Of a DNA stretch of 64,000 nucleotides, positions 1,122 through 53,340 are shown piece by piece. Numbering within the stretch: the stretch's first letter is position 1; every line of letters starts with the position of its first letter. The notes below the pieces were generated by a model that was not told where the DNA came from, made no database searches, and saw nothing but the letters and a program-made list of their open reading frames with translations. The stretch comes from an uncultured Candidatus Saccharibacteria bacterium (GTDB taxonomy: Bacteria > Patescibacteriota > JACMRA01): contig CAZVWQ010000002.1 in NCBI GenBank assembly GCA_964631275.1, positions 26,206-90,205 of the forward strand, read 5' to 3'. Made by a program: the position numbers and the translations under genes.

Positions 1122-1250
1122 TATGAGTGTTTTAGATAATAAGAATCTTAGGATCGAAGAATAGATTCACCTTTATAGAGACTATTTAATTATTTATCTT
1201 TTAAAACAAAGATTTTTAGGTTTTAGTTGTTTCAAAAATTGTAATCTATA

Positions 1251-1365
1251 CTTAATTCACTTTCAAAATTTACATTTTTTAATTTAAAAAGTTATAAAAT
1301 AGGTTTAAAATTAATTAAATTTTAGTTCTAAGTGTTTAATTTGATTATGGAATAGGTATAGAATT
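1251..1365. repeat. dispersed repeat family E (core ..ttcactttcaaaatttacatttt..)
   Basis: Related copies at 2641-2674, 14765-14830, 22690-22757, 49285-49375 and, inverted, 38370-38450. Confidence 0.6.
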
Positions 1366-1479
1366 ACTCTTGCCTGCTATTTTAGATTTTCTTATTCAAA
1401 ATCAGCTATAAATGATTCTTTAATTTTTACTTTTAAATTGATAAAAAATTTCAAACAAGTTTTATAAAAACCAAACTTT

Positions 1480-2346
1480 ATGTACAATCCTCGAGGAGTC
1501 GAATTAGCACAAATGCTCAAAGGTGGAGTTATTATGGATGTCTCTAACCCTGAACAAGCCAAAATTGCCGAAAAGGCAGGGGCTGTAGCAGTTATGGCCT
1601 TAGAAAGAATCCCTTCAGAAATTCGTAAACAAGGAGGTGTAGCCAGGATGAGCAATCCTAAGATGATTAAAGAAATCAAAAATTCTGTAAGTATTCCTGT
1701 AATGGCTAAATGCCGTATCGGACACATCACTGAAGCTCAAATTTTGGAAGCAGTGGCCATTGATTTTGTTGACGAATCTGAAGTTTTGACTCCAGCAGAC
1801 GAGATTAACCATCTAGATAAGACTAAGTTTCAGATACCTTTTGTTTGTGGCTGTCGTAATCTTGGAGAAGCTATCCGTCGAATTTCCGAAGGAGCTAGTA
1901 TGATCCGCACCAAAGGTGAAGCTGGTACAGGTAACATTGTTGAAGCTGTAAAACATCAGAGACAGATCCGTAACGAAATTAAAAAAGTAACTTTACTTAA
2001 CTATGAAGAATTGGTTGTTTATTCTAAAGAAATTGGAGTTTCGATAGAAATTTTAGTCAAAATTAAAGAGCTAGGCAAATTACCAGTAGTTAATTTTGCT
2101 GCCGGTGGAATTGCTACCCCTGCTGATGCCGCTCTAATGATGGCCCTAGGTAGTGATGGAGTTTTTGTTGGGTCTGGTATATTTAATTCTAGTGATCCAG
2201 CCAAAATGGCTAAAGCTATTGTTCAGGCTACAACTTTTTGGGATGATCCAATGCGATTAGCTGAACTCAGTGAAGATATTGGAGAACCTATGTCAGGATT
2301 AGAGATCGATACTCTAGAAACTAAGATGGCGGGGAGGGGAGGGTAG
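1480..2346 (+). CDS. pdxS: pyridoxal 5'-phosphate synthase subunit PdxS
   Basis: [38 protein letters not shown] and the remaining sequence are collinear with PdxS. 288 aa. Confidence 0.95.
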
Positions 2347-2348
2347 TT

Positions 2349-2525
2349 ATATCCAAACTCGTACCAATTTTTATTTTAGATTATAGAATATTTTTTATAC
2401 GTTAACCAATTCAAATTAGGACTTTTTTAATTTTTAACAATAATTTTTGATATTAATTAGATCAAACTAAAACCGAAATTTAAACTTCTAAAAAACTAAA
2501 ACTTGCTTTGCGGTAAGTTATATAC
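2349..2525. repeat. dispersed repeat family D (composite; ..ccaaactcgtaccaattttt.. plus ..gatcaaactaaaaccgaaatttaaacttc..ttgctttgcggt..)
   Basis: Sub-modules recur at 13266-13384, 51284-51455 and 53082-53147, and inverted at 11971-12058, 14860-14930 and 49176-49258. Confidence 0.6.
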
Positions 2526-2674
2526 TAGTTATATGCAACTTTAATAATTATCTTTTAGCGCCCAACAATTAGCTTTTTTAAGGGTTAATTTTGCATAAAA
2601 GCTTGCATAATTTAATACGAAAATGAGTTTAACGGCCATAATTAATTCACTTTCAAAATTTATATTTTTTATCT

Positions 2675-2787
2675 TATACCAATCCGTTTACTATTGCCCA
2701 AAATTTTACTCTTCATAAGTAAATAAATTTTTTATTAAACTAAATTCTTAACAGGTAATTACTGTAACGATTAGCCCAAAGAGTATA
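2675..2787 (+). repeat. repeat family A (about 113 bp, ends TATACC..GTATA, core GGTAATTAC)
   Basis: Aligns along its length with 6257-6369 and, inverted, with 11015-11118, 24495-24608 and 63774-63898. Confidence 0.75.
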
Positions 2788-2908
2788 AGACAATACTATT
2801 GACTAAAATTTTAACTAACAATAGAGTCAAGTAGACTGTTTTTTAAGTTTTGTAGTTTTGTAATAACTTATAAATACAAAAATCTTTAATAAATTTTAAT
2901 TACCAAGG

Positions 2909-3841
2909 ATGCTCAATCAGACTTACGATCCCAAAAAATACGAATCAGAAATATACAATAACTGGCAATCTCAGAGTTTAGGTAAGATTGAAATCCAAGA
3001 TGAAACTCAATTAAAATATATAATTTTTGATTTTGATGGGGTTTTGGCTGATAGTTATGAGGCTGAAATATACGCACTACAAAAAACAGGTAAATTTAGT
3101 GAAATAGATTCGGTTAAAGAATATCTTCAAGAAAAATTTCTTAACCCATCTGTAAAAAATTTTGATGACGTTGAAGAAGTGGCAGTAGAAACGCAAAAAA
3201 TCAGAAAAATCTGTCAGTATAAATTAGAATATGGATTTCATCTTTTTATGGGCTTTATTTATGAACTCAAAAAGCTTAAAAATTTTAGATTTGCTATCAA
3301 TACAACTGCTGACCACTCAAATGTAGACCATCTTTTAGCTGATATTGATCTGAGTTTTGATAACATTCAAACATTAGAAGAAAGCCTAAGTAAAAATCAA
3401 AAAAATAAAGTTATAATCAAAGATTGGAATCTATCTAGTAATCAGAATGTTTATTTTATTACCGATACTGTCAGAGATTATTTAGAAGTTAAAGAAACTA
3501 TAAAAGAGCAAAACATCTTAGCTGTTGATTGGGGCTGGCAAGGTTATCAAACCTTGATTAAATATATGCCAGAAAAGCAAATCCTCAAAAACTATCAAGA
3601 TATTCATAGAATTTTTCCAAGGCATTCAATCTTAATGCCACCGCCAAATTTAACTGGTAAAATGCACGCTGGGCATTCTTTTCAGCATTTTTTGATGGAT
3701 ACACTATCACGAATTAATAGACAAAAAGGTAATCCTAGTCTCTGGTATCCAGGAGTTGATCATGCTGGCATCCAGTTAGAAGGTGTTATCGATAAGTTAA
3801 TTAGAAAAGGTGAATTTGATGAAGAATTAAAAAATAAATAG
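2909..3841 (+). pseudogene. valS: valyl-tRNA synthetase N-terminal fragment with an in-frame HAD-like insert; truncated about 70 aa after the HIGH motif
   Basis: YDPKKYESEIYNNWQ opens as ValRS does. PPPNLTGKMHAGH..WYPGVDHAGI is the HIGH region. FDFDGVLADS..AINTTAD..ITDTVRD between them is HAD-like. TAG at 3839 is followed by multiple stops. Confidence 0.7.
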
Positions 3842-5598: not shown

Positions 5599-5867
5599 AA
5601 ATAATATTTGCATGTTTATACTGAGTTTAGCTTTGACTTTTATTTATATTTAGAAAACCTATTTGATTGCTTGTCTTTTAAAACAAAGATTTTTAGTTGT
5701 TAGATATTAAATCAGCTTGTTTTTAAGGAATTTGAGAATACCTAAAATGTCTAAATTGTGCATAGATTAAGTATATTTTTGATTTTCGTATTCAAAATCA
5801 ACTACCAACGATTTCTTAATTTTTTACTTTTAAACTGCTAAAAATTTCAAACATGTCTATAGTCTAT

Positions 5868-6179
5868 TTATTCAAAAATAGAGCTAGAAGAATTTTGGAT
5901 AGCCTCTAAAGATTTAGATTCACTCTTAGGTAAGGATTGTTGAAATCGGGTCTCTAGATTTATATTTTTAGGTAGCTCTTTTGCTCTAATATTTATTTCT
6001 GGTTCAGAATATTCAGGAGAAAAAGGCCCAAAAACAGACATGGCCCCAAAAACAGCAAGGAATAATATTGTTACAAGCATAGTAACTACAGATAAGATAG
6101 TTCTAAAATCAGTTTTTCTTTTTTCTGGTTGTTTTTGCATTTGCTGAAGTGGTTGTATTTGTATTTGTTGTTGTGACAT
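5868..6179 (-). CDS. small single-pass membrane protein (hypothetical)
   Basis: ORF with a Q-rich N-terminus and the TM helix ILSVVTMLVTILFLAVFGAMSVF. Confidence 0.45.
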   Translation of the reverse strand: MSQQQIQIQPLQQMQKQPEKRKTDFRTILSVVTMLVTILFLAVFGAMSVFGPFSPEYSEPEINIRAKELPKNINLETRFQQSLPKSESKSLEAIQNSSSSIFE

Positions 6180-6256
6180 GTTATAATTATACTTTATATA
6201 ATTAAAGTTATCAACCTTGGCTAGCTATTTATAAATAATCTTAGTTGCTTTTTATC

Positions 6257-6369
6257 TTAATTCAATCCGTAGTATTACCCTAAATTTAGCCTTTCATAAG
6301 TAAATAAATTCTTTATTTAAGGTAAATTCTTAATGGGTAATTACTGCAATGATTAGCCCAAAGGGTATA
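6257..6369 (+). repeat. repeat family A
   Basis: ..caatccgtagtattaccctaaatttagcctttcataagtaaataaatt..ggtaattactgcaatgattagcccaaagggtata. It lies about 65 nt beyond the gltX stop. Confidence 0.75.
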
Positions 6370-6435
6370 AAAATAAACAAAAAATAGTTTGCTCTTTTTA
6401 TAGTTTAAAACTATTAACCCAAAAGATAAGTTAGT

Positions 6436-7410
6436 TTAAATTTCTGTATTCTCCAAATACACCTCTTTATCAGTACCTGGATTCCAACCAAGAAAAACTA
6501 AATAATTAAGGATAGCTTCTGGTAAAAATCCTTCATCTAAATAGCTCTGCATATCTACATTACCATCTCTTTTGGATAATTTTTTGTTCCCAGTTTCACC
6601 TAAAATAAAAGGTAAATGAATATAAGCAGGAACTTGACCCCAATAGTCAAAAAACATAGCTGTGTGCCTAGCAATACTTGGATACCACTCTTGAGCTCTA
6701 ATTACCAAAGTAGTTTTCATTAAGTAATCATCAACTAGATGTGCCAAGTGATAGGTTGGATATCCATCAGACTTTAGAATTGTGAAATCTTCTTCTAGGT
6801 TAAGATCAAATTTGGTCTTGCCAAGTAACTCGTCCTTGCACTCAATAGTTTTATCCCTTTGTAGCTTGTATTTGAGTACTGGTTTGGATTGATCTTTCAG
6901 ACCATCTTTTAGACTTTGAGTTAGTTTTTGTTGGTTAAATCTTTCTTGGCAAATTTTATAATAATTAATTGCTTTTTTGTTGATTTTTTTAATTTCTAAT
7001 AATTCTTGTTTATCTTCTTCGGTTAGATAACTCCAGTAAGCTAAACCCTTATCAAGCAAATTTTGAGCATGTTCGTGATATATATCTAATCTTTTGGATT
7101 GAATGTAAGGCCCAAAGTCTCCTTTTTCGTAGATATCATAAAATTCATCATAAACTCCACCCTGTGAATCATCAGAAATAGGATCAAGTAAAGTAATACC
7201 TTCTTTGGGTAATAAATGTAGCTGATCTAGAGTTTCTAGAAGCTTACGAGCTGAGTCACTTTGCAAACGGTTGCGATCTGTATCTTCTAGCCTGAGATAC
7301 CACTGACCTTGATTTTTGTTAGCAAATAAAGCTGTAAAGAGTATTTGTCGAGTTGTACCTAAATGCAAGTATCCAGTAGGTGAGGGTGCCTGCCTAGTTC
7401 TAAAAGTCAT
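6436..7410 (-). CDS. gltX: glutamyl-tRNA synthetase catalytic core, lacking the anticodon-binding domain (truncated)
   Basis: APSPTGYLHLG (HIGH-like), LRLEDTDRNR, KLSKR (KMSKS) and GFLPEAILNYLVFLGWNPG. TAA follows 14 aa later. Start chosen at ATG 7410; the ORF track starts at TTG 7446. Confidence 0.8.
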   Translation of the reverse strand: MTFRTRQAPSPTGYLHLGTTRQILFTALFANKNQGQWYLRLEDTDRNRLQSDSARKLLETLDQLHLLPKEGITLLDPISDDSQGGVYDEFYDIYEKGDFGPYIQSKRLDIYHEHAQNLLDKGLAYWSYLTEEDKQELLEIKKINKKAINYYKICQERFNQQKLTQSLKDGLKDQSKPVLKYKLQRDKTIECKDELLGKTKFDLNLEEDFTILKSDGYPTYHLAHLVDDYLMKTTLVIRAQEWYPSIARHTAMFFDYWGQVPAYIHLPFILGETGNKKLSKRDGNVDMQSYLDEGFLPEAILNYLVFLGWNPGTDKEVYLENTEI

Positions 7411-7577
7411 ACTCACAAAGTTTTTTTGATTAAATAATTTAGTCAAGAATATTTTTAGACCATGATGTAATTCTTATAACTTTATAAATTTTTCATAAGC
7501 TTACTTGACTAGATTTGTTTTTGTTACAAGTTGTGTTTACTAGATTTAATTTCGACTAGTGAGTCAGTTTTATCGGT

Positions 7578-7695
7578 ATTAATCTTGTCTCAAAATAAGT
7601 TAAAAATAACTAGTTTATATCTTGAAATAAAAAAATTCATTATTTTAGCTGAATTGGCAGTTTTTTATTATTTGTATAAATAAAAGGTAAATCGA
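7578..7695 (+). repeat. repeat family C, divergent copy (terminus attaatcttgtctcaaaa)
   Basis: Shares its terminus with families B and C; the interior is only loosely similar. Confidence 0.35.
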
Positions 7696-7799
7696 TTATT
7701 TTTTCTAATTACGGAACAAGCCCATTGAATGACTTTTTGATTAACATTTATTATTTTTTTTGCCTTTTTTGATTTTTTAATCTAGACTCTATAATCTAT

Positions 7800-10420: not shown

Positions 10421-10545
10421 AATTAGTCTTGTCCCATAACTCAGATTTACAAAACTTTAATCCTATAAATAAGTACTTAAATAAAGAAAACACAGTTAGA
10501 AAAACTCACTGAGTAGTTAACAGTTTAGTATATAGACCACATTTG
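10421..10545 (-). repeat. composite repeat (half of family B plus module J), left arm of a large inverted pair
   Basis: 10421-10478 matches the right half of family B in reverse complement. 10480-10545 is the reverse complement of 12052-12118. Confidence 0.6.
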
Positions 10546-10640
10546 TAATTTTTTGTTTATTTAAAAATAAAAACTAAGAAATCTTTTGTAGCTAATTTTT
10601 AATAAAAAATCTAAGATATAGCTAACCCATACACTAGCTA

Positions 10641-10717
10641 GACATTTTGAGTATCCTAAATTGTACTTTAAAACAAACTTAATATCTAATAACTTATCTA
10701 AGTTGAATGTGAAATTC
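10641..10717 (+). repeat. repeat family F
   Basis: gacattttgagtatcctaaattgtactttaaaacaaacttaatatctaataacttatctaagttgaatg matches the reverse complement of 40100-40176 closely. Confidence 0.7.
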
Positions 10718-10923
10718 TTATACTAGGTTAAGAGTAGTTCAAGTTACAATTTTTGAAACAACTAAACAAAGCTTCCGCAGATACTACTATATTTTGTATT
10801 TAAATACTTAACTAAAGCTACATTTAGTAGTAAAATTCAATTTTTGCGGAAGTCTTGTAAAACCTAAATTTTTTATTTTAAGATATAAATAATCAAATAG
10901 GTTCTAATAAATACAAAAGTTTT

Positions 10924-10999: not shown

Positions 11000-11014
11000 A
11001 ATTAAATAGTCTCT

Positions 11015-11118
11015 TATATCCTTTCCACTAATCGTTACGGTAATTACCCGTTAAGAATTTAGTTTAAATATATGAAAAGCTAAATTTAGGGCAAGCAAAA
11101 AGTAACAGATCAGGTATA
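11015..11118 (-). repeat. repeat family A
   Basis: ..ctaatcgttacggtaattacccgttaagaatttag.. It starts 16 nt after tRNA-Lys. Confidence 0.75.
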
Positions 11119-11145: not shown

Positions 11146-11240
11146 CAATAAACTTGCTCCATAACTCAGATTTACAAAACTTTAATCCCATAAATAAGTA
11201 CTAATCAACAGTAAAATAGGTTTTGAGACATGAATTAATA
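11146..11240 (-). repeat. repeat family B (MITE-like)
   Basis: Reverse complement of the 12352-12458 consensus. Confidence 0.7.
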
Positions 11241-11837: not shown

Positions 11838-11970
11838 GTATAATATTATATATAGCTTTTTATATTTAGTTTAGACATTTTTACCTTACGCACTTTTATT
11901 TTATTTAATCGAAAAATTTGAAATATTTTACCAGATTTTCAGAAAGTCTAGTATGGTAATTCGAGCCACT

Positions 11971-12058
11971 TTCGTTTTGTAAATAAAACCTAGTTTAACC
12001 CTAACTAAAAAGCTTATTCATTAATCTAAAAGTAAAAATTGCTGTGAGCTTTGGTATA
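11971..12058 (-). repeat. repeat family D module (..aaacctagtttaac..aaaagtaaaaattgctgtgagctttggtata)
   Basis: Matches 14860-14930 and 49176-49258. Confidence 0.55.
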
Positions 12059-12118
12059 ATTTATATACCAAACTGTTAGCTACTCAGTGAGTTTTTCTAA
12101 CTGTGTTTTTTTATTTAA
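12052..12118 (+). repeat. repeat module J, right arm partner of 10480-10545
   Basis: ..ataccaaactgttagctactcagtgagtttttctaactgtgttt.. is the reverse complement of 10480-10545. Confidence 0.65.
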
Positions 12119-12351
12119 CCAAAATAAAACCTTCAGTTAAATCATAATTTAGTTAGTATCTGGTATACAAGTAAAAATTATACCATTTCGCCATAAATTA
12201 TTTATTACGATATGAGACGGTTTTACCTTAAAAAGCTAAATTTTTCTCTGAATTTTTTGGAATAGTTTTATAGTAAATTGGTATTAGTTGAATATCCTTA
12301 CTTGGTATAGAAGCTTTCTTTAGGTAAAGAGTTTCTGAGATTTTTAAATTT

Positions 12352-12458
12352 ATTAATCATGTCTCAAAAATGTCTCAAAACCTATTTTTACTGTTGATTA
12401 GTACTTATTTATGGAGTTAAAGTTTTGTAAATCTGAGTTATGGGACAAGGCTATTAAT
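12352..12458 (+). repeat. repeat family B, full copy (MITE-like, imperfect termini attaatcatgtctc / gacaaggctattaat)
   Basis: Termini are mutually reverse-complementary. Copies at 16385-16478 and 11146-11240; halves at 10421-10478 and 38456-38494; a fused-termini relic at 53293-53313. Confidence 0.7.
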
Positions 12459-12978: not shown

Positions 12979-13265
12979 ATGCTTGATTTATATTTTTGTT
13001 ATAGTGGGTATCTAGCTACTATATCTAGAGTAATTATGATTAAAAAAATATATTTTGGCAAATAAAAACAAATTAAATCCTTCTACACTCCAATCATGAA
13101 ACTCCCAGTTTTAAAAATATTAACTTTAGAAATTGTATCTACTTAATTTAAATTTACCTCAAAACCTTCTAAAATATCCGAACTTTTTTTTAAATGAGCA
13201 TAAAGTAGATTATTTTTGAATCTCGAAACAAAACTATTTAGTAGTTTTTTATGCAGTTATATTCA

Positions 13266-13384
13266 ATTAGTCCAAATTTGGACTTTTTTAATTTTTAAGA
13301 TTACTTTTTGATGCTGATTAGGTCAAATTAAAGCGGAAATTTAAACTTCAAAAAAACTAAAATTTGCTTTGCGGTGACTATAAA
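13266..13384 (+). repeat. repeat family D sub-module
   Basis: ggacttttttaatttttaag..gatgctgattaggtcaaattaaagcggaaatttaaacttc..tttgctttgcggtgac matches 2407-2525. Confidence 0.65.
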
Positions 13385-14390: not shown

Positions 14391-14764
14391 TTTGGCTAGA
14401 GATTATAATTACACTTTATAAAAATTTAAGTTATACTCTTAAGTTAGGCTTTTCTAATTCAGAATTTACATATTTCCTAATTGCCTTATTACCTATACCT
14501 AGAGTTTTTGGGATAATCTTCAAAGTGTGACCAGAATTAAGAAATAACAAAGCTGCTACTCTTATATATTTCCAGTTATGAATTTTTAGCAAGCACTATT
14601 TTTTTGGATTAATGATGCCTCAAAGCTTCGCAAAATATTTTAGTTTTCTTGATTAAATAAAATAGTAGTTTTTCCTAATTTGTTACTTTTTTTATAAAAT
14701 AAATAAAAAGGAGCTTGCTTCTTTAAAGGTTTATTTCTCTAAGTATTGGGATAAGATTATTGGG

Positions 14765-14930
14765 CATAGCTTCCAAATTTAATTAAGTTTAGTTTTATTG
14801 TTCAATTCGATTATGGGACGGATGTAATACTGTATCCAAACCCGTTTCATTTTTAAAAAACCTAGTTTAGTTTTAATTAAAAAGCTAATTTTTAGTCAAA
14901 AAGTAAAAATTGGTACGAGCTTGGGTATTA
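14765..14930. repeat. composite of repeat families E and D
   Basis: catagcttccaaatttaattaagtttag.. then ..aaacctagtttagttttaattaaaaagc..aaaagtaaaaattggtacgagcttgggtat. Confidence 0.6.
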
Positions 14931-16384: not shown

Positions 16385-16478
16385 GTAATCATGTCTCAAA
16401 ACCTATTTTTACTGTTGATTAATATCTATTTTATAGGGTTAAGTTTTGTAGATTTGAGTTATAAGACAAGACTAATAA
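16385..16478 (+). repeat. repeat family B
   Basis: gtaatcatgtctcaaaacctatttttactgttgatta..gtagatttgagttataagacaagactaataa. Confidence 0.7.
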
Positions 16479-16536
16479 CCTCGTCTTTAAACTTTTCAAA
16501 AACCTTTATTTAAAAAGATAAGTAATCAAATAGATT

Positions 16537-17820
16537 CTATATCCAGCCTCTAAGTTTGATCGCTTCAGCAACTCTTCTAAGAGCTAGAATATAAGCCCCT
16601 TGTCTATTATCGACGCCATACTCTTGGCTAATACTCCAAACTTCATTAAAGGCTTTAATCACTCTAGAACGCAATTTTTGTAAAACTTCTTCTTCTGACC
16701 AGTAATAATTACTAGCATTCTGCACTTGTTCGAAATAGCTAACTGTTACTCCTCCAGCGTTAGCTAGAATATCAGGAAGTACAGTTATTCCTTTTTCAAA
16801 TAAAATTTTATCAGCTTCTGGAGTTAGAGGTCCGTTAGCTAATTCTACTATTAAATTTGTGTTTAGATTATCTGCGTTATTAATAGTTACCACGCTTTCT
16901 AGAGCAGCTAAAACTAAAACATCTACCTTTTCTTTTAGAATAGAATATTCAGGGCTTTGGATATGCTTGAAACTACTTTGATCACCTATATTAGCTTCAT
17001 AGTATTGCTCTAAGCTACCGTTAGTAGTTTTGTGGTTAATTAGATCAGGAATATTTAAGCCTTGAATATTGCGGACTACGCTTTTAGAATCAGCAATAGC
17101 TATAATTTGGCAGTCAAATTCTTTATCTTCAGCACAAAATCTAGCAAATTCCATTCCAGCATTACCAAATCCTTGAATGGCAATTTTTAATTTTTGGTTT
17201 GATTTACCGATATTTTTGACAGCTTCTTTAAGAACAAAAAAACCTCCCTGAGCAGTAGCTCTGCTACGACCTTCAGAGCCTCCCAAAATCAAGGGCTTAC
17301 CAGTAATTACCCCTCCAGCATACTGGCTTTGGTTTAGTTTCTCGTATTCATCTCTCATCCAACTCATAATTTGGCTATTAGTATAAACATCTGGAGCTGG
17401 AATATCTTGATTAGGTCCGATTAACTTATGAATTTTTTGAATAAAACCCCTGCTTAATTTTTCTAATTCGACCTCTGAAAGTTCTCTAGGATTAACAATT
17501 ATTCCACCTTTTCCTCCTCCAAGTGGCAAATCCATAACTGCACATTTCCAGGTCATCCACATAGATAAAGCCATAACTTCTTCTTTATTTACTTCTGGAT
17601 GAAAACGGATACCACCTTTATATGGACCTAAGGCATTACAATGTTGAGAACGAAAACCTGTAAAAACTTTAACCTCTCCAGAGTCCATTTTAACCGGAAT
17701 ATTAACTTCTATTATTTGTTGCGGTTTAGACAAAAAAGTTATGATATTAGGTTCTAAGCCTATTTTTTTAGATGCTAATTCTAGCTGATTAACCGCTATT
17801 TCATAAGGATTATTTGGCAT
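16537..17820 (-). CDS. gdhA: glutamate dehydrogenase (Glu/Leu/Phe/Val dehydrogenase family)
   Basis: KGGIRFHP, LPLGGGKGGI, GFGNAG Rossmann motif. 427 aa. Confidence 0.93.
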   Translation of the reverse strand: MPNNPYEIAVNQLELASKKIGLEPNIITFLSKPQQIIEVNIPVKMDSGEVKVFTGFRSQHCNALGPYKGGIRFHPEVNKEEVMALSMWMTWKCAVMDLPLGGGKGGIIVNPRELSEVELEKLSRGFIQKIHKLIGPNQDIPAPDVYTNSQIMSWMRDEYEKLNQSQYAGGVITGKPLILGGSEGRSRATAQGGFFVLKEAVKNIGKSNQKLKIAIQGFGNAGMEFARFCAEDKEFDCQIIAIADSKSVVRNIQGLNIPDLINHKTTNGSLEQYYEANIGDQSSFKHIQSPEYSILKEKVDVLVLAALESVVTINNADNLNTNLIVELANGPLTPEADKILFEKGITVLPDILANAGGVTVSYFEQVQNASNYYWSEEEVLQKLRSRVIKAFNEVWSISQEYGVDNRQGAYILALRRVAEAIKLRGWI

Positions 17821-18462: not shown

Positions 18463-18995
18463 TAAGCTGTGTGTTTTCGAGTTCTATTTATATTTTCTGA
18501 TAAGTTAGTTTTTCCCTAAAACAAAATACTTCCTGAAATACAAAGTTTTCTGGTAAGATTTTTACTCTAAAATATCAACAAAATTAGATTTTAATCTAAA
18601 AGTTATACCCAAACTATTTCAAAAATTTACATTTTGCAAAACATTTTTTAATTCTTTAAGTGTGACTTGATAAGAATACTTTTTATTTTTGGATGTTAAA
18701 ATTGGTAAGGCTTCTATAATATAGTTTAAAACTTCTAAAATCTTTCAATAATCAAATTTTTAGAGGTTTTTTTGTTTGAAAATGTAAATAGTGCTTGAGG
18801 TTTCATACCTAAGTTATATATCAGCTATACTATACTCATTCCATATCAACTAGTATTACAAACTTTTAGGCAAAATTAACTCGTAAACAAGCCACTTGTT
18901 TGATTACTAAAAAATAATTATAAAAGTTGTAAGCGAATTGGCGCATAATAAGTTTTTGTTTTGTTGCAAGTTAATTATAGATGGTATAAAAAAAT

Positions 18996-19110
18996 GATGG
19001 ATTTTTGAAAATTCAATTTTTTTTGACAAAATAAACAAAAAATAATTATTATCTTAAGTTGTAAGATAAGGCTAACATACAAAAAGTATTTGAAAATTCA
19101 AAAATTCTGA
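18996..19110 (+). promoter_or_regulatory. promoter-bearing repeat (TTGACA 19023-19028, TATTAT 19047-19052) with palindrome ATCTTA-N5-TAAGAT at 19051-19067
   Basis: Inverted twin at 21066-21176. Lies upstream of ORF 19238. Confidence 0.4.
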
Positions 19111-19237
19111 ATTTTTAGATCTTATTAAAAATTTTTAGTTTTTAAAGAAATCTTACAAACAATTAAATCAAGATTATAAAGAAAAATAATTTTCTTATAA
19201 ACATCTTATAAAATAATATTAATTAATAACATATACT

Positions 19238-19702: not shown

Positions 19703-19953
19703 AGATATGGAAAAAAGTTTGGTGTAACTAGAAAAAAATTTAAGACTGTCTACAAAGAATCTAATCCTGAATTAAAAAAAAGTTCTTAGAAGAGTTAGAT
19801 AAATTGATTATCGAATACGGTTTACATAACACCTACTATCAAGATGAACCTGGTTTTTTTTATGAATACTTCTATAAAAAATATGGTTATGTACCAGAAC
19901 TTAACATTATTAAAAATACATGGGGTACAATAAAACAGAATCTTAGAAATTAG
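19703..19953 (+). pseudogene. IS630/Tc1-mariner family transposase relic (frameshifted, internally deleted)
   Basis: ..YYQDEPGFF.. (DDE region) and ..YVPELNIIKNTWGTIKQNLRN* (C-terminal P-E-L-N-x-I-E/K-x-x-W motif). Frameshift in the A-run at 19774-19781. Confidence 0.65.
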
Positions 19954-20076
19954 ACCTCCTGCACTGAAATTTTTATTCGTTTGATTGAGTAAACAAAAAA
20001 TTAGAAATTGTAAGTTTTTAAAAATTCTGAATTATTGTTTTTAATTAGAGGTTAAACAGCTTTACTGCAAGGAGTC
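19953..20076. mobile_element. MITE (124 bp) with the same termini as 18347-18462
   Basis: Left end gacctcctgcactgaaa. Right end ctttactgcaaggagtc. TA at 19951-19952 and 20077-20078. Confidence 0.55.
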
Positions 20077-20168: not shown

Positions 20169-20427
20169 ACCCCTGCACAAAATTGTGTCTGGAGTGTTCA
20201 ATCTAAGTTAGGTTGAGTACGAGGTTCAGTAAGATTTTAGGAACTCATCTAAAGACAAGCTTGTTAGATTTTATGCAGATTATTTATGCCTGAACTAAGT
20301 AGTTTTTCGGCATTTGTTTGCTTTTGAGTAATTCTTAGCTGAGTAACTCTTGTTTTATTTTGAGTAGACATGTATCAGACAATAAATTAAAAATAGTTTT
20401 TATGTCAGACACAATTTTTGTAGGGGT
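20169..20427. mobile_element. 259-bp element bounded by 23-nt inverted repeats (non-autonomous)
   Basis: Left end acccctgcacaaaattgtgtctg. The right end reads acccctacaaaaattgtgtctg in reverse complement. No ORF inside. Locally GC-richer. Confidence 0.55.
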
Positions 20428-20454
20428 CTCAAGTTGGCAGGGGTTTGAGTATAA

Positions 20455-20963: not shown

Positions 20964-21065
20964 AAAAATAGTTAAAAGTTTGCAAAAATAAAAATATTAC
21001 AAGCGTTATTTATTAACAAAATCAATTATTAAATCAAATTTAAATTACACTTAAACTAATTTAAG

Positions 21066-21176
21066 TCAGATTTTTTGAATTTTTAAATACTTTTTTAATA
21101 ATTAACTTTGTATTATTACAAAGATAAAATAATTATTTTTTATTTATTTTGTCAAAAAAAATTTCAAATGGATTCG
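21066..21176 (-). promoter_or_regulatory. promoter-bearing repeat, twin of 18996-19110 (TTGACA at 21150-21155 on the minus strand), with palindrome CTTTGTA-N4-TACAAAG at 21106-21123
   Basis: The reverse complement aligns with 18996-19110. Lies upstream of the TM2-rpsT pair. Confidence 0.4.
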
Positions 21177-22570: not shown

Positions 22571-22627
22571 AGTTCATTTAAGATTTTTTAAATATCTTAA
22601 TTAACCTAATTATACTTCAACATATTT

Positions 22628-22757
22628 CACTTTACAAATAAAACCTAGTTTAGTTCTAATTAAAAGACTTATTTTTAAGCTAAAAGTCATACATAGCTTC
22701 AAAATTTAATTAAGTTTAGATCTAATGTCGTCTAATTTCGATATGGAATAGACATAA
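22628..22757. repeat. composite of repeat families D and E
   Basis: ..caaataaaacctagtttagttctaattaaaag.. then ..agcttcaaaatttaattaagtttagatc..gatatggaatagac. Confidence 0.55.
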
Positions 22758-24477: not shown

Positions 24478-24494
24478 ATTAATTTTTATTCAAT

Positions 24495-24608
24495 TATACC
24501 CTTTTAAATAAGTCATTATGGCAATTACCTGTTAAGAATTTAGCCTAAGTAAGAGATTTATTTGCTCATGAAGTTAATTTAGGGCAGTAGTAAATTGGAC
24601 TGGGTATA
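24495..24608 (-). repeat. repeat family A
   Basis: tatacccttttaaataagtcattatggcaattacctgttaagaatttagcc..gggtata. It begins 18 nt upstream of the nadB start. Confidence 0.75.
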
Positions 24609-30334: not shown

Positions 30335-30352
30335 GTATTGTATTATCTAAAT

Positions 30353-30484
30353 ATCCCAGTTCAGCTCATCGTCGGGCCAAAGGATGTTCAGGCAGGTGAG
30401 GTTAGTGTCAGGACACAACAGGGGGAGAGTAAGGTTGGGTTGGAAGAATTAAATCAATTTTTAACAAATTTAAGTCAAAAATAA
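30353..30484 (+). pseudogene. displaced copy of the thrS 3' end (copy 2)
   Basis: 30368-30445 differs from 28632-28709 at 1 of 78 nt. Reads IPVQLIVGPKDVQAGEVSVRTQQGESKVGLEE..* in frame. Confidence 0.88.
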
Positions 30485-32220: not shown

Positions 32221-32251
32221 TTATGCAGTTTTACCAAACTCTAGCTATATT

Positions 32252-32350
32252 ATCGCCGTGCTAGAATATATTCAGGCAGGGGAGGCTAGTGTAAGGACAC
32301 AAGAGGGAGAGAGTAAGGTTGAGTTGGAGGAGCTACAAAGCTATTTATAA
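32252..32350 (+). pseudogene. displaced, diverged copy of the thrS 3' end (copy 3)
   Basis: atcgccgtgctagaatatattcaggcaggggaggctagtgtaaggacacaagagggagagagtaaggttgagttggag.. Reads ..IQAGEASVRTQEGESKVELEELQSYL*. Confidence 0.7.
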
Positions 32351-32366
32351 GGTTTAAAATAACAAA

Positions 32367-36771: not shown

Positions 36772-36900
36772 ATTAATCATGTCTTAAAATCTTTCAAAAA
36801 TCTTTATTTTTTTGTTAAACAAAGTAAAACTATTAAGTTTCCAAAAATTCAGTACTTTTTAGTTTAAAATAAACAAAAATTAACTTATTTCTTTATACTA
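36772..36900 (+). repeat. repeat family C (shares the family B terminus)
   Basis: attaatcatgtcttaaaatctttcaaaaatc..aaaattcagtactttttagtttaaaataaac.. Confidence 0.6.
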
Positions 36901-37512: not shown

Positions 37513-37664
37513 TTAATAGTCTTGTCTCAAACTTGTCTCAAAACCTTTCAAAAATTATTTTTTTTGATTGACTAAAATAAAAGTAATTATTTTCCATAAA
37601 TTCAACACTTTTTACTTTAGAATAAACAAAAAATAGGTTATTTTTTTTGAGTAATAAGGTAGGT
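37513..37664 (+). repeat. repeat family C
   Basis: ttaatagtcttgtctcaaacttgtctcaaaacctttcaaaaatt..ttcaacactttttactttagaataaac..gagtaataaggtagg. Confidence 0.6.
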
Positions 37665-38051
37665 TTACTTTTTTATTTAAAGCAATTTCACAACACTAAA
37701 CTTTAACATGTACATTTCTGAGCTTATTTAGATTTTCTGACAGGCTAGTTTTACCCTTAAAATAAACCACTTTTTGAAATAGAAAATTTTTACTAACATT
37801 TTTATTCTAAGATATCAACAAAATTAGATTTGAATTAAAAATAGCATGAAATTTCTAAAACCTTTTAATAATCAAGTTTTTAGAGTTTTTTGTGATTAAT
37901 TTGTGATTAAAAATATAAATGCTTAATAAGTTTACATTATTGGCTATTTTTGTTAGTTATTGGCATGACCTTAGTAAATATAAAAAACAACTTGTCAAAA
38001 ATCATTATTTGATTTTCAATTATTGTGCAATTTACAATTTTCCAAAAACTA

Positions 38052-38306: not shown

Positions 38307-38529
38307 TATGGAAGTTTTTAAGTACTATACCCATTCCATAACCAAATTCAACATTAAAGCTAAGCTTAATTCGACTTTAAAGGTATTTTGTAGCTTTTTA
38401 GGATTTAAAAATGTAAATTTTGAAGCTGAATTAAATATACCTATTTTAGGAGATCAAAATTTTGTAAATCTGAGTTATAGAACAAGACTAATAATCAAAC
38501 AGCTTATATAATCATGAGATAGGGACCTA

Positions 38530-40047: not shown

Positions 40048-40099
40048 AAGTTGGCTTCTGTTATATTATTGATTACTTTATGATTGTAATATCAGTTAT

Positions 40100-40176
40100 A
40101 GCAATTTTACATTTAACTTAGATAAGTTATTAGATATTAAGTTTGTTTTAAAGTAAGTTTAGGATGCCCAAAATAT
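40100..40176 (-). repeat. repeat family F
   Basis: Reverse complement of 10641-10717. Confidence 0.7.
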
Positions 40177-40569
40177 CTAACTGGGATATGGATTAGCTAG
40201 TAGATCATCAACTGGTCTTTCTTCACTTAACTCAAAGTCTATCAAATTTGTTAAAACTAAAAATTTTGAGTATAGGAGTTTTATAGTTTTATTGTCCTCA
40301 ACGAAATATTCTAATATTAAATAAAGATCATAAGAACCTTCTCGAAGATAGTTTATAATGATATTATCGATAATTAAGTTAATCTTAATAGGCTTGTGAC
40401 CTTCTATTATAAGTTTTTCATTTTCAAGTCTTATTTTATGATAAATTTCCCAAAAATATGAATTTCTTTGTAAGGATCTCTTAGCCTTAAAAAATCTATC
40501 AAAATTACGCTCTAATCTAATTTCCTCAATCCTCTCTATGAACTTACGACTTAGATCGATTCCATCCAT
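40177..40569 (-). CDS. hypothetical protein
   Basis: ORF only. Confidence 0.45.
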   Translation of the reverse strand: MDGIDLSRKFIERIEEIRLERNFDRFFKAKRSLQRNSYFWEIYHKIRLENEKLIIEGHKPIKINLIIDNIIINYLREGSYDLYLILEYFVEDNKTIKLLYSKFLVLTNLIDFELSEERPVDDLLANPYPS

Positions 40570-44030: not shown

Positions 44031-44154
44031 ATGTTGAGTATTATTGTGTATGTCAAGCTAGTAGATTATTACTCAAATTAACTTAAACTAAGCTTTTTTA
44101 ATTTACAAATTCTTTTTGATGTTGGTTAAACCTATCTAAAACCAAAAATTTATA

Positions 44155-44282
44155 ATTAATCTTGTCTCAAAACTTTTTAAAAACTTTTTTGATTAAATAA
44201 AACAAAAGTAGCAAATTTTTATAAATTCAGTACTTTTTACTTTAAAATAAAAAGAAATTGTTTTTTTGAGTAAATGGTAAGG
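44155..44282 (+). repeat. repeat family C
   Basis: attaatcttgtctcaaaactttttaaaaac..aaattcagtactttttactttaaaataaaa..gagtaaatggtaagg. Confidence 0.6.
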
Positions 44283-44341
44283 CCTAAAAATCAGGCAAAC
44301 CATAGGCTATAATTAATTTTACATCTAATTAGCTAAGCAAT

Positions 44342-47870: not shown

Positions 47871-47878
47871 GATAGTCT

Positions 47879-48862: not shown

Positions 48863-49175
48863 ATTGGATTTAACTGCATAGATTCCTGACTTTGTCAAAG
48901 TTGACAGGAGGGGTTTATTTGGATTTGATTAAATAAGTTAAGATTTATACAAAATACAAAATACTTTATTAGATCTTTTGCATAACCTAGCAGTAAATCT
49001 CCTTTTAAAAAAATTTGAAGTCTCTTTAAACATGTAATGCAAGAATTTTATTTTATATTTGGTTTACAGAATTCGTTTGTGTGTTTTTAATTTATGCTCA
49101 ACGCAAGACAAATCTCAGTTTTTTTAGAATCTAAATTTTTGTTTTTAGTTTTTTATCTTTATTCAAACCTATTTT

Positions 49176-49375
49176 GTTTTATAAATACAACCTAGTTAAG
49201 TTTTAATTAAAAAAACTTGTTCTTAATCCAAAAGTAAAAATTGGTACGAGCTTATGCCTAATCCATTTACTATTATCTAAATTCAGCTTCAAAATTTACA
49301 TTTTTAAATCTTAAAAAGCTGCAAAATACGTTTAAAATCGAATTAAGCTTAAATTTGGTTATGAAATGGATATAA
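49176..49375. repeat. composite of repeat families D and E
   Basis: ..acaacctagttaagttttaattaaaaaaac..aaaagtaaaaattggtacgagctta.. then ..agcttcaaaatttacatttttaaatc.. Confidence 0.6.
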
Positions 49376-49719
49376 ATTTCCTTACTCCAAAAAAAACAAA
49401 GTCATTGACTTAAAAGTATATCCAGATTAATCCAAACTAAACCTTTATCAATTTGCAAGTATTTGCTTTATTCTGATTAAATATAGATAAATTTATAAGC
49501 AAAAATACTATTTATTAAGAGTTTTTAAGTGTAGATAAAAGTTATAATTAGTTTGATAATTTTACAGAAACTATATATAGTTCAACCAAAAATTAGACTT
49601 CAAAAAACTGAAATTTGTTTTATACTCGATGTAAATTTTAGCAGATTTAGGCAAACAAAGAGCTAGTTCAAAGTGCTTAAAGAGGTTTCAAAATATTAAT
49701 TACTTTATTAACACTGCTT

Positions 49720-51276: not shown

Positions 51277-51283
51277 GGTAAAT

Positions 51284-51455
51284 ATATACCAAGCTCGTAT
51301 CAACTTTTAGTTTTAGATTAAAAATAAGTCTTTTATAATTAGATCAGCTAAAATTAGGACTTTTTGAGTTTTTAAATATTTTCTTTTAATCTTTATTAAA
51401 TCTAGCTTAAATCAAAAATTTAGATTTTAAATTAAATTAAACTTGTCTTAGGTGA
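51284..51455. repeat. repeat family D (composite)
   Basis: atataccaagctcgtatcaacttttagttttagatt..attaggactttttgagtttttaaat.. parallels 2349-2525. Confidence 0.55.
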
Positions 51456-51491
51456 TGTGATTTCAACATAAATACTTGACTAATTAAAAAC

Positions 51492-51520
51492 TTGACTTAA
51501 TTATACTTTTTAAGTATGAT
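51492..51520 (+). promoter_or_regulatory. sigma70-type promoter (TTGACT, 17-nt spacer, TATGAT)
   Basis: ttgacttaattatactttttaagtatgat. ATG at 51538. Confidence 0.4.
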
Positions 51521-51537
51521 ATATGTCATATTTTTGT

Positions 51538-53079
51538 ATGACAGTAAAAAATCTAAAAATTGGTTTAAATATCTTAGGCTTTGGTTTACTTTGTCTTGGA
51601 TTAGTAGTTTTTGGTCTAACCATGGAAGCTCAATATATTGATGATGATAATCATAATGTAGCTTGTTATGCTGTGGCTGATAATGGGGTAAATGACGGCC
51701 CCGACCAACTAGTCAGAATATTTCAAAACGAAATTGTAGTAATTGGTGATTATACTGGCACTCAAGGCATCGAAGGCATGGCTATTAACAGGGCTACAGG
51801 GGAGGTTTATGCAGCTGATGCTGGCAGGTTAGGAAGATTAAATTTGCAAACTGGACTTTTTAGTTTTGTAGCTAATTTTGGTAGCGGTAGAGGTAGTATT
51901 GGCGACAGACAATTTAGAGATGTTGATGCTTTAGTAATTGACTCAGAAACTAATATTTTATTTGGAGTTAATAAAATTTCTGAAACCAGAGAACACTTGT
52001 TATTTCAGTTTGATCTTAATACTAATCAATTAATCAGAGATGCTTATGGGCCTGGAGCTGACTATGTAGTAGTTAGGCATCAAGGAGTCAGTCAAGGAGT
52101 TAATGATTTAACATGGTATCAAGGAGATTTGATTGGAGTCGGATACTATAACAACATGGCAAATAATGGCTCAAACAAAGTTTATAGGATTTTTAATCTT
52201 AATCGATATACTGGCGAGGTAAGCGAGAGCTACAATACAGAAATTAGAGATATAGAGGCTATTAATACTGACCCTTTTGGCCAATTATACGGAATTGTGT
52301 CTGCTCAAGGGTTTAGTCATGCAGATACTATTTTTAAGATGACTAGATTTGGTCAAATTGACCTAAATAGTAGCAGGTCAATTACTGTAGGCTTTGATTA
52401 TGAGGCTGTAGTTTGCATCGAATACTATCCTACTGATGACTCTTCTTCGTCAAGTGAAGACAGCAACTTTAGCTCTAGTACTTCTGAGCAAAGTTCAGTT
52501 AGCTCTGTGGATTCTTCTGATTCGTCAGAAGATAGTGAAGATAGTGAAGATAGTGATTTATCTGATTCTAATAATTCTAGCTCAGAAATTAGTTTATCTA
52601 GTGATAATAGTATCCAAAGCTCATTGTCTAGTGATTACTCAAGCTCGTTTAGTAATTCTGATAGTTCTAACTCTTCTCAGTTAAATCAAAATACTGATAA
52701 TAATTCTAGCTCTTCAAATGACTCGGGTAACTTTAACTTTTCTCAATATATACCTGAAGACTATACTCCTACTATAATCCAAAATAGCTATCCAGGTCAT
52801 CCTAATTTTAAGCAGCTAAATAATCAAGATTTTTCAGAAAACAACACTAACATTATTGATGATAATGAAGCTATAATCACTCAAAACATTTCAGAATTAA
52901 ATAGTAACAGCACTGAAAATACACCTAGCTCACTTACATTAATTAGAACTGGAGGTCAAAATAGCTTTATTACGAGACTTGCTATTTCTATGATTTTGGT
53001 TTTATTTGGTATTAGCCTTTTGCTTATCAATATGAGGATTTCAGAAGAATCTATGAGATATACTAAAATCAACTTCTAA
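51538..53079 (+). CDS. cell-surface protein with signal/TM N-terminus, repeat-like globular domain, S/D-rich stalk and a sortase-type sorting-signal variant
   Basis: C-terminus reads LIRTGG, then hydrophobic ITRLAISMILVLFGISLLLI, then a charged tail. SSSSEDS.. stalk. Confidence 0.7.
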   Translation: MTVKNLKIGLNILGFGLLCLGLVVFGLTMEAQYIDDDNHNVACYAVADNGVNDGPDQLVRIFQNEIVVIGDYTGTQGIEGMAINRATGEVYAADAGRLGRLNLQTGLFSFVANFGSGRGSIGDRQFRDVDALVIDSETNILFGVNKISETREHLLFQFDLNTNQLIRDAYGPGADYVVVRHQGVSQGVNDLTWYQGDLIGVGYYNNMANNGSNKVYRIFNLNRYTGEVSESYNTEIRDIEAINTDPFGQLYGIVSAQGFSHADTIFKMTRFGQIDLNSSRSITVGFDYEAVVCIEYYPTDDSSSSSEDSNFSSSTSEQSSVSSVDSSDSSEDSEDSEDSDLSDSNNSSSEISLSSDNSIQSSLSSDYSSSFSNSDSSNSSQLNQNTDNNSSSSNDSGNFNFSQYIPEDYTPTIIQNSYPGHPNFKQLNNQDFSENNTNIIDDNEAIITQNISELNSNSTENTPSSLTLIRTGGQNSFITRLAISMILVLFGISLLLINMRISEESMRYTKINF

Positions 53080-53174
53080 TTAGGGTTTTTTTAATTTAAA
53101 AAATATTTTTTGATGCTGACCAGGTCAAACTAAAGTGAAATATATGGTTATATATAAAATACCCTGCTCATAAT

Positions 53175-53241
53175 TATAGTCAATCCCTATAAAACTTAAA
53201 CGTTTTATATATCTTACCATAACGATTAGCCCAAAAGGTAT
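53175..53241 (+). repeat. repeat family A, internally deleted copy
   Basis: tatagtcaatccctata..taccataacgattagcccaaaaggtat. Confidence 0.5.
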
Positions 53242-53340
53242 TTGATAATTTTTGTAATTCAAACCAAAATATAAAATCTAGAATTATTTTTAGTTTTGAG
53301 ACGAGACTAATAACTGCCATCTTATTAGTTATTAAACCTA

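Follow-up and report, generated by a model that had tools for sequence, protein, structure and literature searches.

The dispersed modules that fill the intergenic DNA of the window (the whole 64,000-nt stretch analysed) are MITEs that have terminal inverted repeats and duplicate their target sites; the earlier note had described them as recurring modules and given no identity. At a probability of roughly 0.85, we read these repeats as non-autonomous, MITE-type transposons that fall into three classes by their mode of insertion and whose successive bursts into the spacers produced the mosaic. According to this model, 70–190-nt, AT-rich, gene-less derivatives of insertion sequences, mobile only with a transposase from another element, would have settled in successive bursts in the sole places that tolerated them, the intergenic spacers; the mosaic would result because insertions often fell into older copies. 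While the element type is conventional and of a known kind, the load is unusual for the apparent phylum.

Repeat families in the window and across the genome

Using nhmmer profiles seeded from the window (family models span 51–190 nt), we delimited about 16 short repeat families of 70–190 nt, with sharp module boundaries and 53 non-redundant window copies, none of them within a gene. The same families yield about 1,400 nhmmer hits genome-wide, spread over as many as 40 of the 46 low-GC contigs, which bears out the earlier claim of at least eight dispersed families. The main families have 41–208 hits each, on 23–40 contigs, and BLASTN against the rest of the genome gave 30–146 matches per window module; similarity among modules is far beyond chance. 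F6, about 100 nt long, has 93–150 copies. Family copies total 123.5 kb, or 8.6% of the 1.43 Mb genome, and DNA present at least five times makes up 11%. The MITE load of the pneumococcus is several times below such values (8.6–11% of the genome). Identity to the family consensus ranges from 72% to 98%, being merely 72–84% in old families and 94–98% in the youngest, F10 and F15.

The window copies are listed below. They were located with nhmmer unless another basis is given in brackets ("also" marks additional evidence); single letters are the family names of the earlier note.

1175..1243, +, F7/8 left half (G), host of a nested insertion (also aligned with the 185-nt consensus built from 23 intact copies)
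1249..1358, +, F3 (E), class I, inside F7/8 (duplicated TA at 1247-1248 and 1359-1360)
1380..1460, +, F7/8 right half (H) (also consensus alignment)
2349..2395, -, F12 fragment, part of D (inverted match to 49203-49253)
2396..2517, +, F5 (D), class I (also about 65 BLASTN matches)
2535..2623, +, F17/18, class I
2638..2676, +, F3 5' fragment (repeat match within the window)
2672..2791, +, F1 (A), class I (also about 140 BLASTN matches)
5652..5707, +, F7/8 left half (also consensus alignment)
5695..5772, -, F6 fragment within F7/8 (also consensus alignment)
5776..5855, +, F7/8 right half (also consensus alignment)
6256..6372, +, F1
7583..7713, +, F11, class II termini (also family consensus)
10424..10480, -, F2, partial, class II
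10476..10531, -, F4, partial (J)
10535..10616, -, F7/8 right half, host of two nested insertions (consensus alignment)
10616..10722, +, F6 (F), class I, nested in F7/8 (left end 28/30 identical to an IS630 pseudogene end)
10767..10857, +, F10, class III, nested in F7/8 (4-bp duplication TAAA at 10763-10766 and 10858-10861)
10838..10906, -, F7/8 left half; host piece between the F6 and F10 inserts, the third G copy, at about 10725-10766 (also consensus alignment)
11010..11111, -, F1
11152..11232, -, F2
11964..12054, +, F12
12065..12162, +, F4
12180..12283, +, F19
12370..12453, +, F2
13264..13377, +, F5
14616..14728, +, F9
14765..14823, +, F3, partial
14839..14925, +, F12
16390..16474, +, F2
16498..16541, -, F7, partial
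18469..18774, +, F14 in two pieces, 18469-18600 and 18722-18774
18840..18933, -, F17/18
19951..20076, +, F15, young family (98% identity to consensus), ATT flanks
20380..20430, +, F22, short module
22620..22752, +, F12 partial (22620-22689) and F3 partial (22672-22752)
24492..24606, -, F1
36779..36893, +, F9
37532..37659, +, F9
37710..37896, +, F14
38328..38437, -, F3
38437..38490, +, F2, partial
40099..40199, -, F6 (also F6 end comparison)
44070..44151, +, F5, partial
44161..44274, +, F9
49093..49149, -, F5, partial
49166..49253, +, F12
49277..49371, +, F3
49580..49632, +, F5 fragment
51289..51357, -, F12, partial
51335..51450, +, F5
53059..53148, +, F5, partial
63771..63882, -, F1

All family coordinates given previously agree with the nhmmer-defined families, although some units had to be redrawn. 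Family A is F1, with five window copies instead of the six reported; B and C, which have common termini, resolve into F2 (5 copies), F9 (4) and F11 (1), ten in total; E, F and J are F3, F6 and F4; and the "200–300 bp family" is F14. D is real but comprises two families, F5 and F12, that often adjoin. Similarly, G and H exist, but they belong together: G is the left half and H the right half of F7/8, an element of 185 nt of which 23 uninterrupted copies occur elsewhere in the genome; the third G copy (10741-10770) is genuine and lies in inverted orientation.

As the genome was binned from a metagenome and is fragmented into 53 contigs, 7 of them high-GC and probably foreign, the similarities might be an artefact of local segmental duplication, of strain variants joined in one chimeric contig or of an assembly error. 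However, the repeats are spread genome-wide and not confined to the window, their copies have diverged (72–98% identity to consensus), and the genes that flank them are unique and differ from copy to copy across about 40 contigs. In addition, one mosaic spacer recurs unchanged (651/651) in an independent assembly, that of Logan for run SRR7048222; in other assemblies with the same locus the sequence is identical. We consider an artefact refuted, as far as the data allow, and its residual probability negligible. The repeats explain the bad assembly, 50 of the 92 contig ends stopping in them, and the family models can be used for masking or scaffolding this genome. The families are restricted to the source lineage.

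Element structure and insertion classes

As is characteristic of MITEs (PMC2229807), the elements are small (below about 200 bp) and without a coding frame (the longest stop-free stretches span 22–36 codons and never exceed the element), are dispersed in high copy number, and show target-site duplications, in this case for F10, F2 and the class I nested sites. The consensus sequences of F1–F6, F7/8, F10, F12, F15, F17/18 and F19 have terminal inverted repeats; that of F14 has no obvious one.

Class I (F1, F3, F4, F5, F6, F7/8, F12 and F17/18) has the ends TATA(C/G)...(C/G)TATA and duplicates TA, as IS630/Tc1-mariner transposases do; together with F19, assigned here provisionally, it accounts for about 5.9% of the genome. 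Class II, with a 3-bp duplication (ANT), contains F2 and F15 as well as F9 and F11, which were assigned via common termini (about 2.1% of the genome), and class III, with a 4-bp duplication, consists of F10 (about 0.4%). Of the 23 copies of F10, 17 have identical 4-bp flanks, compared with 2.2 in shuffles, and the flank sequence differs from copy to copy. For F2, 56 of 107 copies have identical 3-bp flanks, mostly ATT or AAT (shuffles: 25.7, maximum 37), and the 3-bp flanks of F15 match by eye in 6 of 9 copies.

Because the TA flank is invariant, the class I duplication rests on nested-site reconstructions. In 53 nested copies with an uninterrupted host copy elsewhere, rejoining the host with one TA was best in 31 (p = 1.5e-4), while no TA was best in 10 and two TA in 12, i.e., another register in 22 of 53; one filled/empty pair is identical at 75/75 bases. 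Of the explicit nested insertions reconstructed, three lie inside the window. In one of these, the intact F7/8 host reads GTAATT-TA-GAATTAC and the window reads GTAATC-TA-[F3]-TA-GAATTAC. We claim no preferential targeting: 28% of testable class I copies lie inside other repeats, about as predicted from the repeat share of non-coding DNA (31–39%).

Short, palindromic, intergenic and highly repeated sequences would also be expected of REP/REPIN-type palindromes, which a RAYT (Y1, IS200/IS605-like) transposase mobilises. This explanation is scarcely credible here, since the genome lacks a Y1 transposase (PF01797 gave no hit although controls responded) and the elements are 70–190 nt long, with DDE-type terminal repeats and 2–4-bp duplications. 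REPs are not known to make target-site duplications.

Candidate transposase sources and known systems

Two IS630-family transposase fragments on contig C5, assigned via NCBIfam NF033545 and Pfam DDE_3, end in ...GGTTAGCTATA. One of these ends (C5b) and the F6 terminus have 28 of 30 bases in common, so that F6 has RUP-like terminal repeats matching an IS630-family element; it is the only family so tied by sequence. Related IS630 copies in a Limisphaerales genome (62–68% amino-acid identity) end in ...GGATTGGCTATA, after which unrelated DNA follows. The other TA-class families (F1, F3, F4, F5, F7/8, F12 and F17/18) likewise duplicate TA and begin with TATA(C/G), and no insertion sequence end with their terminal repeats was found; on C39, an IS630 copy is cut off by the contig edge, and its left end is indistinct.

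The class II and III duplication lengths fit the 2–4 bp of the IS5 superfamily, and the genome contains fragments of IS5 and IS982 as well as a weak DDE_Tnp_4-like one, the ends of which gave no convincing match to F2, F10 or F15. Two candidate partners were rejected: the IS982 element on C4 for class II, since the adjoining class-II-like end points the wrong way, and the IS5 fragment on C6 for F10 and F15, since the resemblance is weak and just 14 nt long. The mobilising was probably done by IS630-family and IS5-like transposases. All IS630, IS982, IS5 and IS1595 genes are fragmentary or frameshifted, and no intact transposase was found in this genome, which is only about 86% complete, so that intact copies could hide, e.g., at the contig ends that stop in repeats. 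Since the transposase genes found are broken, most families now appear to be fossils.

The RUP element of Streptococcus pneumoniae is roughly 100 nt long and gene-less, has about 100 intergenic copies, inserts at TA, often into mobile elements, and has terminal repeats matching IS630-family insertion sequences of the same genome, IS630-Spn1 being the proposed partner (PMC2229807). F6 is like it in size, TA target and IS630-type ends. However, RUP is one family, whereas the source genome has at least eight TA-type families plus two more classes, and its IS630 genes are broken. The Correia/NEMIS elements of Neisseria, 100–155 bp long and present in hundreds of copies, have a terminal TA, long inverted repeats starting TATAG... 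and hairpin-forming transcripts (PMC2229807). The TA termini, TATAG-type ends and hairpin capacity recur here, and filled and empty sites define the insert in both cases, but there is no sequence similarity to our families, and the source is a small-genome, probably symbiotic bacterium.

Placement, folding and genome context

By a crude, home-made Markov gene caller, the non-coding share is 26.9% in the window (17.2 kb) and 28% genome-wide, in line with the quarter estimated before; recognisable MITE copies make up roughly one-third of this non-coding DNA. Repeats occur in 20 of 26 window spacers longer than 200 bp and in 459 of 584 genome-wide (about 77–79%), so that "nearly every" such spacer was a mild overstatement. 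The likening to repeat-laden symbiont genomes holds up: same-family relatives are compact and almost without internal repeats, having 84–91% of their DNA in long ORFs versus 73% in the source genome. Rickettsia, with its palindromic elements, and symbionts such as Amoebophilus asiaticus (PMC3196728) likewise have AT-rich small genomes, about one-quarter non-coding, with many palindromic families, broken transposase genes and little sign of current transposition, a "genome in transition". Yet Rickettsia elements often lie in frame within genes, whereas only 653 of 123,515 repeat bases (0.5%) overlap called genes here, and Amoebophilus carries full insertion sequences, not MITEs.

The consensus sequences of F1, F6 and F10 fold as long hairpins (z = -3.7 to -6.5), and convergent spacers, the site of terminators, hold more copies than expected (358 versus 245), divergent ones fewer (281 versus 367). 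As the bacterial MITEs Correia and ERIC influence transcripts (PMC2229807), transposon-born elements might now be maintained by the host as terminators, promoters, RNA-stability hairpins or protein-binding sites, the spacers being functional scaffolds. We think this improbable. No family shows an orientation bias relative to neighbouring genes, old families are just 72–84% identical to consensus, and purifying selection against promoter hits predicts the convergent enrichment equally well. Moreover, conserved structure, for which the earlier note had suggested a check, did not emerge: in HMM-anchored alignments of F1, F2, F4 and F6, base-pair covariation is no higher, and pairing decays no differently, than in partner-shuffled controls, and the excess in F10 is accounted for by a subfamily split.

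Being intergenic, multi-copy and hairpin-capable, the repeats could also be structured non-coding RNA genes or parts of them, such as a small RNA family or cis-regulatory leaders. This reading is disfavoured, and we hold it to be very improbable, as an Rfam scan of the window returned two tRNAs and nothing else, copies are equally split between both strands, with no preferred one, compensatory changes are absent from F1, F2, F4 and F6, and the elements have target-site duplications and nest in one another. The location of 99.5% of repeat bases outside genes, the lack of orientation bias, the convergent enrichment and the missing covariation are instead signs of selfish rather than functional DNA, consistent with MITEs.

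Relaxed selection in this lineage may have permitted the bloom. Patescibacteria, usually called streamlined, have a phylum-wide coding density of 89.6 +/- 2.7% (PMC11809585), and our literature text searches found no paper on MITEs in the group. A bolder, tentative proposal, which we regard as possible but doubtful, is that this is the heaviest MITE load yet in Patescibacteria/CPR, in a lineage in transition: a recent loss of selective efficiency (e.g., by host switch or population bottleneck) might have let at least 16 families expand, stemming from three or more transposase lineages of which one or more came from unrelated lake bacteria, lowering coding density from the norm of the phylum, about 90%, to about 72% and inflating the genome to 1.5–1.7 Mb, with F10 and F15 perhaps still moving. 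Tiny Patescibacteria genomes are not immune to selfish-DNA blooms, and this one offers a natural test case for the interplay of relaxed selection, symbiosis and genome size.

The source is probably an ultra-small member of the Patescibacteria/CPR: its named TopA hits, at about 50% identity, carry the label "Patescibacteria group" or SR1, except for one marked just "bacterium", and other members of the phylum have genomes of 0.5–2 Mb. At 66% identity, the closest TopA relative sits on a compact contig (about 88% coding) that has no gene order in common with the window and hence offers no comparable orthologous spacers. Candidate division SR1, which reads TGA as glycine, is among the best named TopA hits, and we therefore considered an alternative code as the cause of split genes and low coding density. 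This was rejected: ORFs lengthen no more with TGA as sense than with TAG as sense, and TGA terminates only 6% of confident genes.

Dispersed repeat families and coding density

The genome assembly comprises 1.48 Mb in 53 contigs with approximately 30% G+C, the window being C2:26206–90205, and its phylum-mates among the genomes compared span 0.5–2 Mb. Seven short contigs (C30, C34, C40, C46, C47, C49 and C50) have 49–60% G+C versus about 30% for the rest and are probably contaminants of the bin; since they look foreign, they were omitted, and the repeat analysis was carried out on 1.43 Mb. Contig C27 (37% G+C) has IS481-like fragments together with an ORF of 4,179 aa. The named relatives of the topoisomerase I (TopA) encoded in the window, at about 50% identity, are labeled 'Patescibacteria group' and 'candidate division SR1', with one given just as 'bacterium'. 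Together with the genome sizes, these labels make the host a probable member of the Patescibacteria (CPR). It uses the standard genetic code: ORFs gained no more length when TGA was read as sense than when TAG was, and TGA ends 40 of 667 confident genes.

A BLASTN comparison of the window with the whole genome returned 2,365 non-self matches. They cluster in 40 segments with a combined length of 9.9 kb and pile up in the spacers with abrupt starts and ends (30–146 matches per module). Using 23 window modules as seeds for nhmmer profiles, iterated on the genome, and merging redundant seeds, we obtained about 16 families (F-numbers) with roughly 1,400 matches, which cover 123.5 kb (8.6% of the genome) on up to 40 contigs; the window itself holds 53 non-redundant copies (4.9 kb). 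By a profile-free measure, sequence present at least five times accounts for 11% of all DNA in the genome and for 39% of the non-coding part. It also holds 50 of 92 contig ends (versus that genome-wide 11%); the assembly is thus interrupted by repeats, and the true repeat load is probably higher. A stretch of about 700 bp at 430–1140, including an ORF at 888–1121, has exactly one further copy in the genome and is a plain two-copy duplication rather than a MITE.

The earlier note's reading of the intergenic DNA as a mosaic of at least eight dispersed repeat families was thus right, as judged by BLASTN and nhmmer across the whole genome, and each of its coordinate lists maps onto nhmmer-defined families, although the family boundaries shift. 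Its family D consists of genuine repeats that belong to two families, F5 and F12, while its G and H, also genuine, are halves of one 185-nt element (F7/8) that has 23 uninterrupted copies elsewhere in the genome; the third G copy likewise maps to F7/8, in inverted orientation. The termini that it saw as common to B and C are explained by F9 and F11, which have F2 termini. Repeats occur in most spacers longer than 200 bp (20/26 in the window, 459/584 genome-wide) rather than in nearly all of them. The two alternatives, that the similarities are confined to the window or that the contig is a chimera of strain variants, are contradicted by diverged copies throughout the genome with different unique genes on their flanks, and by the pdxS-valS spacer (built of F12, F5, F17/18, F3 and F1 pieces), which matches an independent Logan assembly of SRR7048222 at 651 of 651 bases.

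The estimate that about a quarter of the window is non-coding also held: a crude, frame-aware Markov gene caller that had been trained on long ORFs of the same genome assigned 73% of the window and 72% of the whole genome to coding sequence, with 99.5% of repeat bases falling outside called genes. For comparison among genomes we used a measure cruder than the gene caller, the fraction of sequence lying in stop-to-stop ORFs of at least 100 codons, which is 0.73 in the host genome, 0.74–0.91 in samples of six same-family genomes (five at 0.84–0.91, and G011 at 0.74) and 0.82–0.94 in samples from a genome of the same order and two others of the same phylum. Internal repeats occurring at least three times are practically absent from all of these samples. 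The contig encoding the closest TopA homolog (66% identity) is about 88% coding, and the mean coding density of the phylum Patescibacteria is 89.6 ± 2.7% (PMC11809585).

Insertion signatures of three element classes

The elements are conventional bacterial MITEs, i.e., gene-less non-autonomous transposons; their quantity, the many families and the host that carries them are unusual. Family consensus sequences have terminal inverted repeats, F14 being without obvious ones. Class I (F1, F3, F4, F5, F6, F7/8, F12 and F17/18) duplicates TA, and its members start with TATA(C/G) and end with (C/G)TATA. Because this TA is invariant, the duplication is unreadable from single copies, and we used copies nested in another repeat for which an uninterrupted copy exists elsewhere. 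Of 190 class I copies with both ends intact, 53 had such a partner; when their flanks were rejoined, the best ungapped match retained one TA in 31 cases, no TA in 10 and TATA in 12 (p = 1.5e-4). In the best case, an F5 copy inside F10 on contig C9, the rejoined flanks are identical over 75 of 75 bases to an uninterrupted F10 on C38. The window provides a further example:

1249–1358, F3 inserted in an F7/8 host; uninterrupted host GTAATT-TA-GAATTAC, window GTAATC-TA-(F3)-TA-GAATTAC

Among class I copies, 28% lie within other repeats, close to the level expected from random insertion into non-coding DNA that is 31–39% repeat, so the mosaic requires no special targeting.

Class II elements are flanked by a 3-bp direct repeat, ANT. 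F2 itself starts AATCATGTCTC... and ends ...GGGACAAGACT, with this repeat on both sides; its 3-bp flanks, mostly ATT or AAT, are identical in 56 of 107 copies, as compared with 25.7 (maximum 37) in shuffles. In F15, the youngest family, they match in six of nine copies read by eye. F9 and F11 are placed here by the termini that they have in common with F2. Class III is represented by F10 (CAAAGCTTCCGCAG...CTTGCGGAAGTCTTG), in which identical 4-bp flanks of varying sequence were found in 17 of 23 copies with placeable ends, versus 2.2 by chance. Its copy in the window is:

10767–10857, F10 with TAAA on each side, within an inverted F7/8 that also hosts an F6 copy

The 3- and 4-bp duplication lengths fit IS5-type elements; no convincing match to the F2, F10 or F15 ends was found among the IS5, IS982 and DDE_Tnp_4-like fragments of the genome.

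Putative source transposases, age and lineage range

No intact transposase was found in the genome, all such genes being broken, and no Y1/RAYT transposase was detected in it. Four IS630-family fragments were identified, two of them on contig C5 and one each at the ends of C39 and C51:

C5:52300–53558, IS630-family transposase fragments
C39:6166–6939, IS630-family transposase fragment
C51:1–141, IS630-family transposase fragment

The other broken transposases are a frameshifted IS982, an IS5 C-terminal fragment, several IS1595 fragments and a weak DDE_Tnp_4-like fragment. The mutual similarity of the C5 fragments stops exactly at ...GGTTAGCTATA, and the reverse complement of the C5b terminus corresponds to the F6 left end (28 of 30 bases for the window copy at 10616). 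Given this match, F6 derives from an IS630-family element by internal deletion, the relation also proposed for RUP and IS630-Spn1 (PMC2229807). By analogy, the TA target and TATA start may link the other class I families to IS630 as well. Overall, F6 is demonstrably IS630-derived, several TA-duplicating families are probably so, and two further classes make 3- and 4-bp duplications.

The nearest intact-looking relatives of this IS630-family transposase (62–68% amino acid identity) belong to multi-copy elements in a lake Limisphaerales genome, where every copy terminates in ...GGATTGGCTATA and unrelated DNA begins beyond it. Less similar ones are found, likewise as multi-copy elements, in lake-derived genomes of Oligoflexales, Candidatus Arcanobacter lacustris and Vampirovibrio. 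This distribution suggests that the IS630-family element has moved horizontally between freshwater bacteria that are not related to one another.

Median identity to the consensus is 98% for F15, 94% for F10 and F19, 92% for F4 and 88% for F2, and among older families 84% for F3, 82% for F1, 78% for F5, 73% for F9 and 72% for F6. This range speaks for several bursts spread over a long period, F15 (class II) and F10 (class III) being among the most recent. The families are restricted to the host lineage: full-length copies of F1, and of a concatenate of F2, F3, F4, F6 and F10, are confined to the host genome among 26 family genomes (GTDB), and full-length F1 copies are also absent from 35 more distant relatives. 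In G011, G002, G016 and G009, genomes from relatives of the host lineage, matches are limited to pieces of terminal-repeat size or similarly short, apart from one F1-like copy in G011 (74% identical). As the comparison set includes no same-genus genome, the bloom can be dated only to after the divergence from those genera that were sampled. Full-text searches returned no paper dealing with MITEs in Patescibacteria.

Genomic placement, folding and neighboring genes

No orientation preference relative to flanking genes was seen in 16 families. Convergent gene pairs have an excess of copies between them (358 observed versus 245 expected from length) and divergent pairs a deficit (281 versus 367 expected), as predicted by selection against insertion in promoter regions. 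Although the F1, F6 and F10 consensus sequences form long hairpins (z = −3.7 to −6.5), conserved secondary structure, for which the earlier note proposed a test, was not borne out in F1, F2, F4 and F6. In alignments of 82–119 copies, with 3' partners randomly redealt as a control, the paired fraction in these families was the same as in the partner-shuffled sets and double changes were no commoner, and the fold therefore comes from the inverted repeats rather than being kept by selection. An excess of double changes in F10 (25 versus 10.6) arises because two subfamilies differ at both ends. Rfam matches in the window comprise just two tRNAs.

The threonyl-tRNA synthetase gene thrS (26331–28742) contains an in-frame DUF559/Vsr-like endonuclease domain (residues 151–257; insert approximately 26694–27230) with GC-rich 42-nt inverted repeats on either side (26692–26733 and 27188–27229). 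Its last ~123 nt occur as three direct copies (28614–28736, 30350–30472 and 32234–32356, the latter two 89% and 71% identical to the first), which lie 1.7–1.9 kb apart with small gene cassettes between them and do not constitute a MITE family. Inverted repeats of ~100 nt (19015–19113 and 21063–21163, with 36-nt cores 97% complementary) surround a 2-kb stretch with small ORFs; a tRNA-Gly lies just outside the right arm, and the arm sequence is a repeat module with about 39 partial genome matches. A 310-aa ORF at 2909–3841, adjoined by an F1 copy (2672–2791), combines a HAD-like domain with just ~65 residues of ValRS, and the N-terminal half of GluRS (6436–7446; model positions 2–283 of 470) is likewise adjoined by F1 (6256–6372); the ORF at 5868–6179, a candidate GluRS tail, has no Pfam match. 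At 38530–40047, OMP decarboxylase (PyrF) and a phosphoribosyltransferase domain, probably PyrE, are joined in one 505-aa ORF. Finally, a 2,352-aa ORF at 55806–62864 has VanY and M23 peptidase domains and is located in a region whose G+C content, about 40%, clearly exceeds the genome mean.
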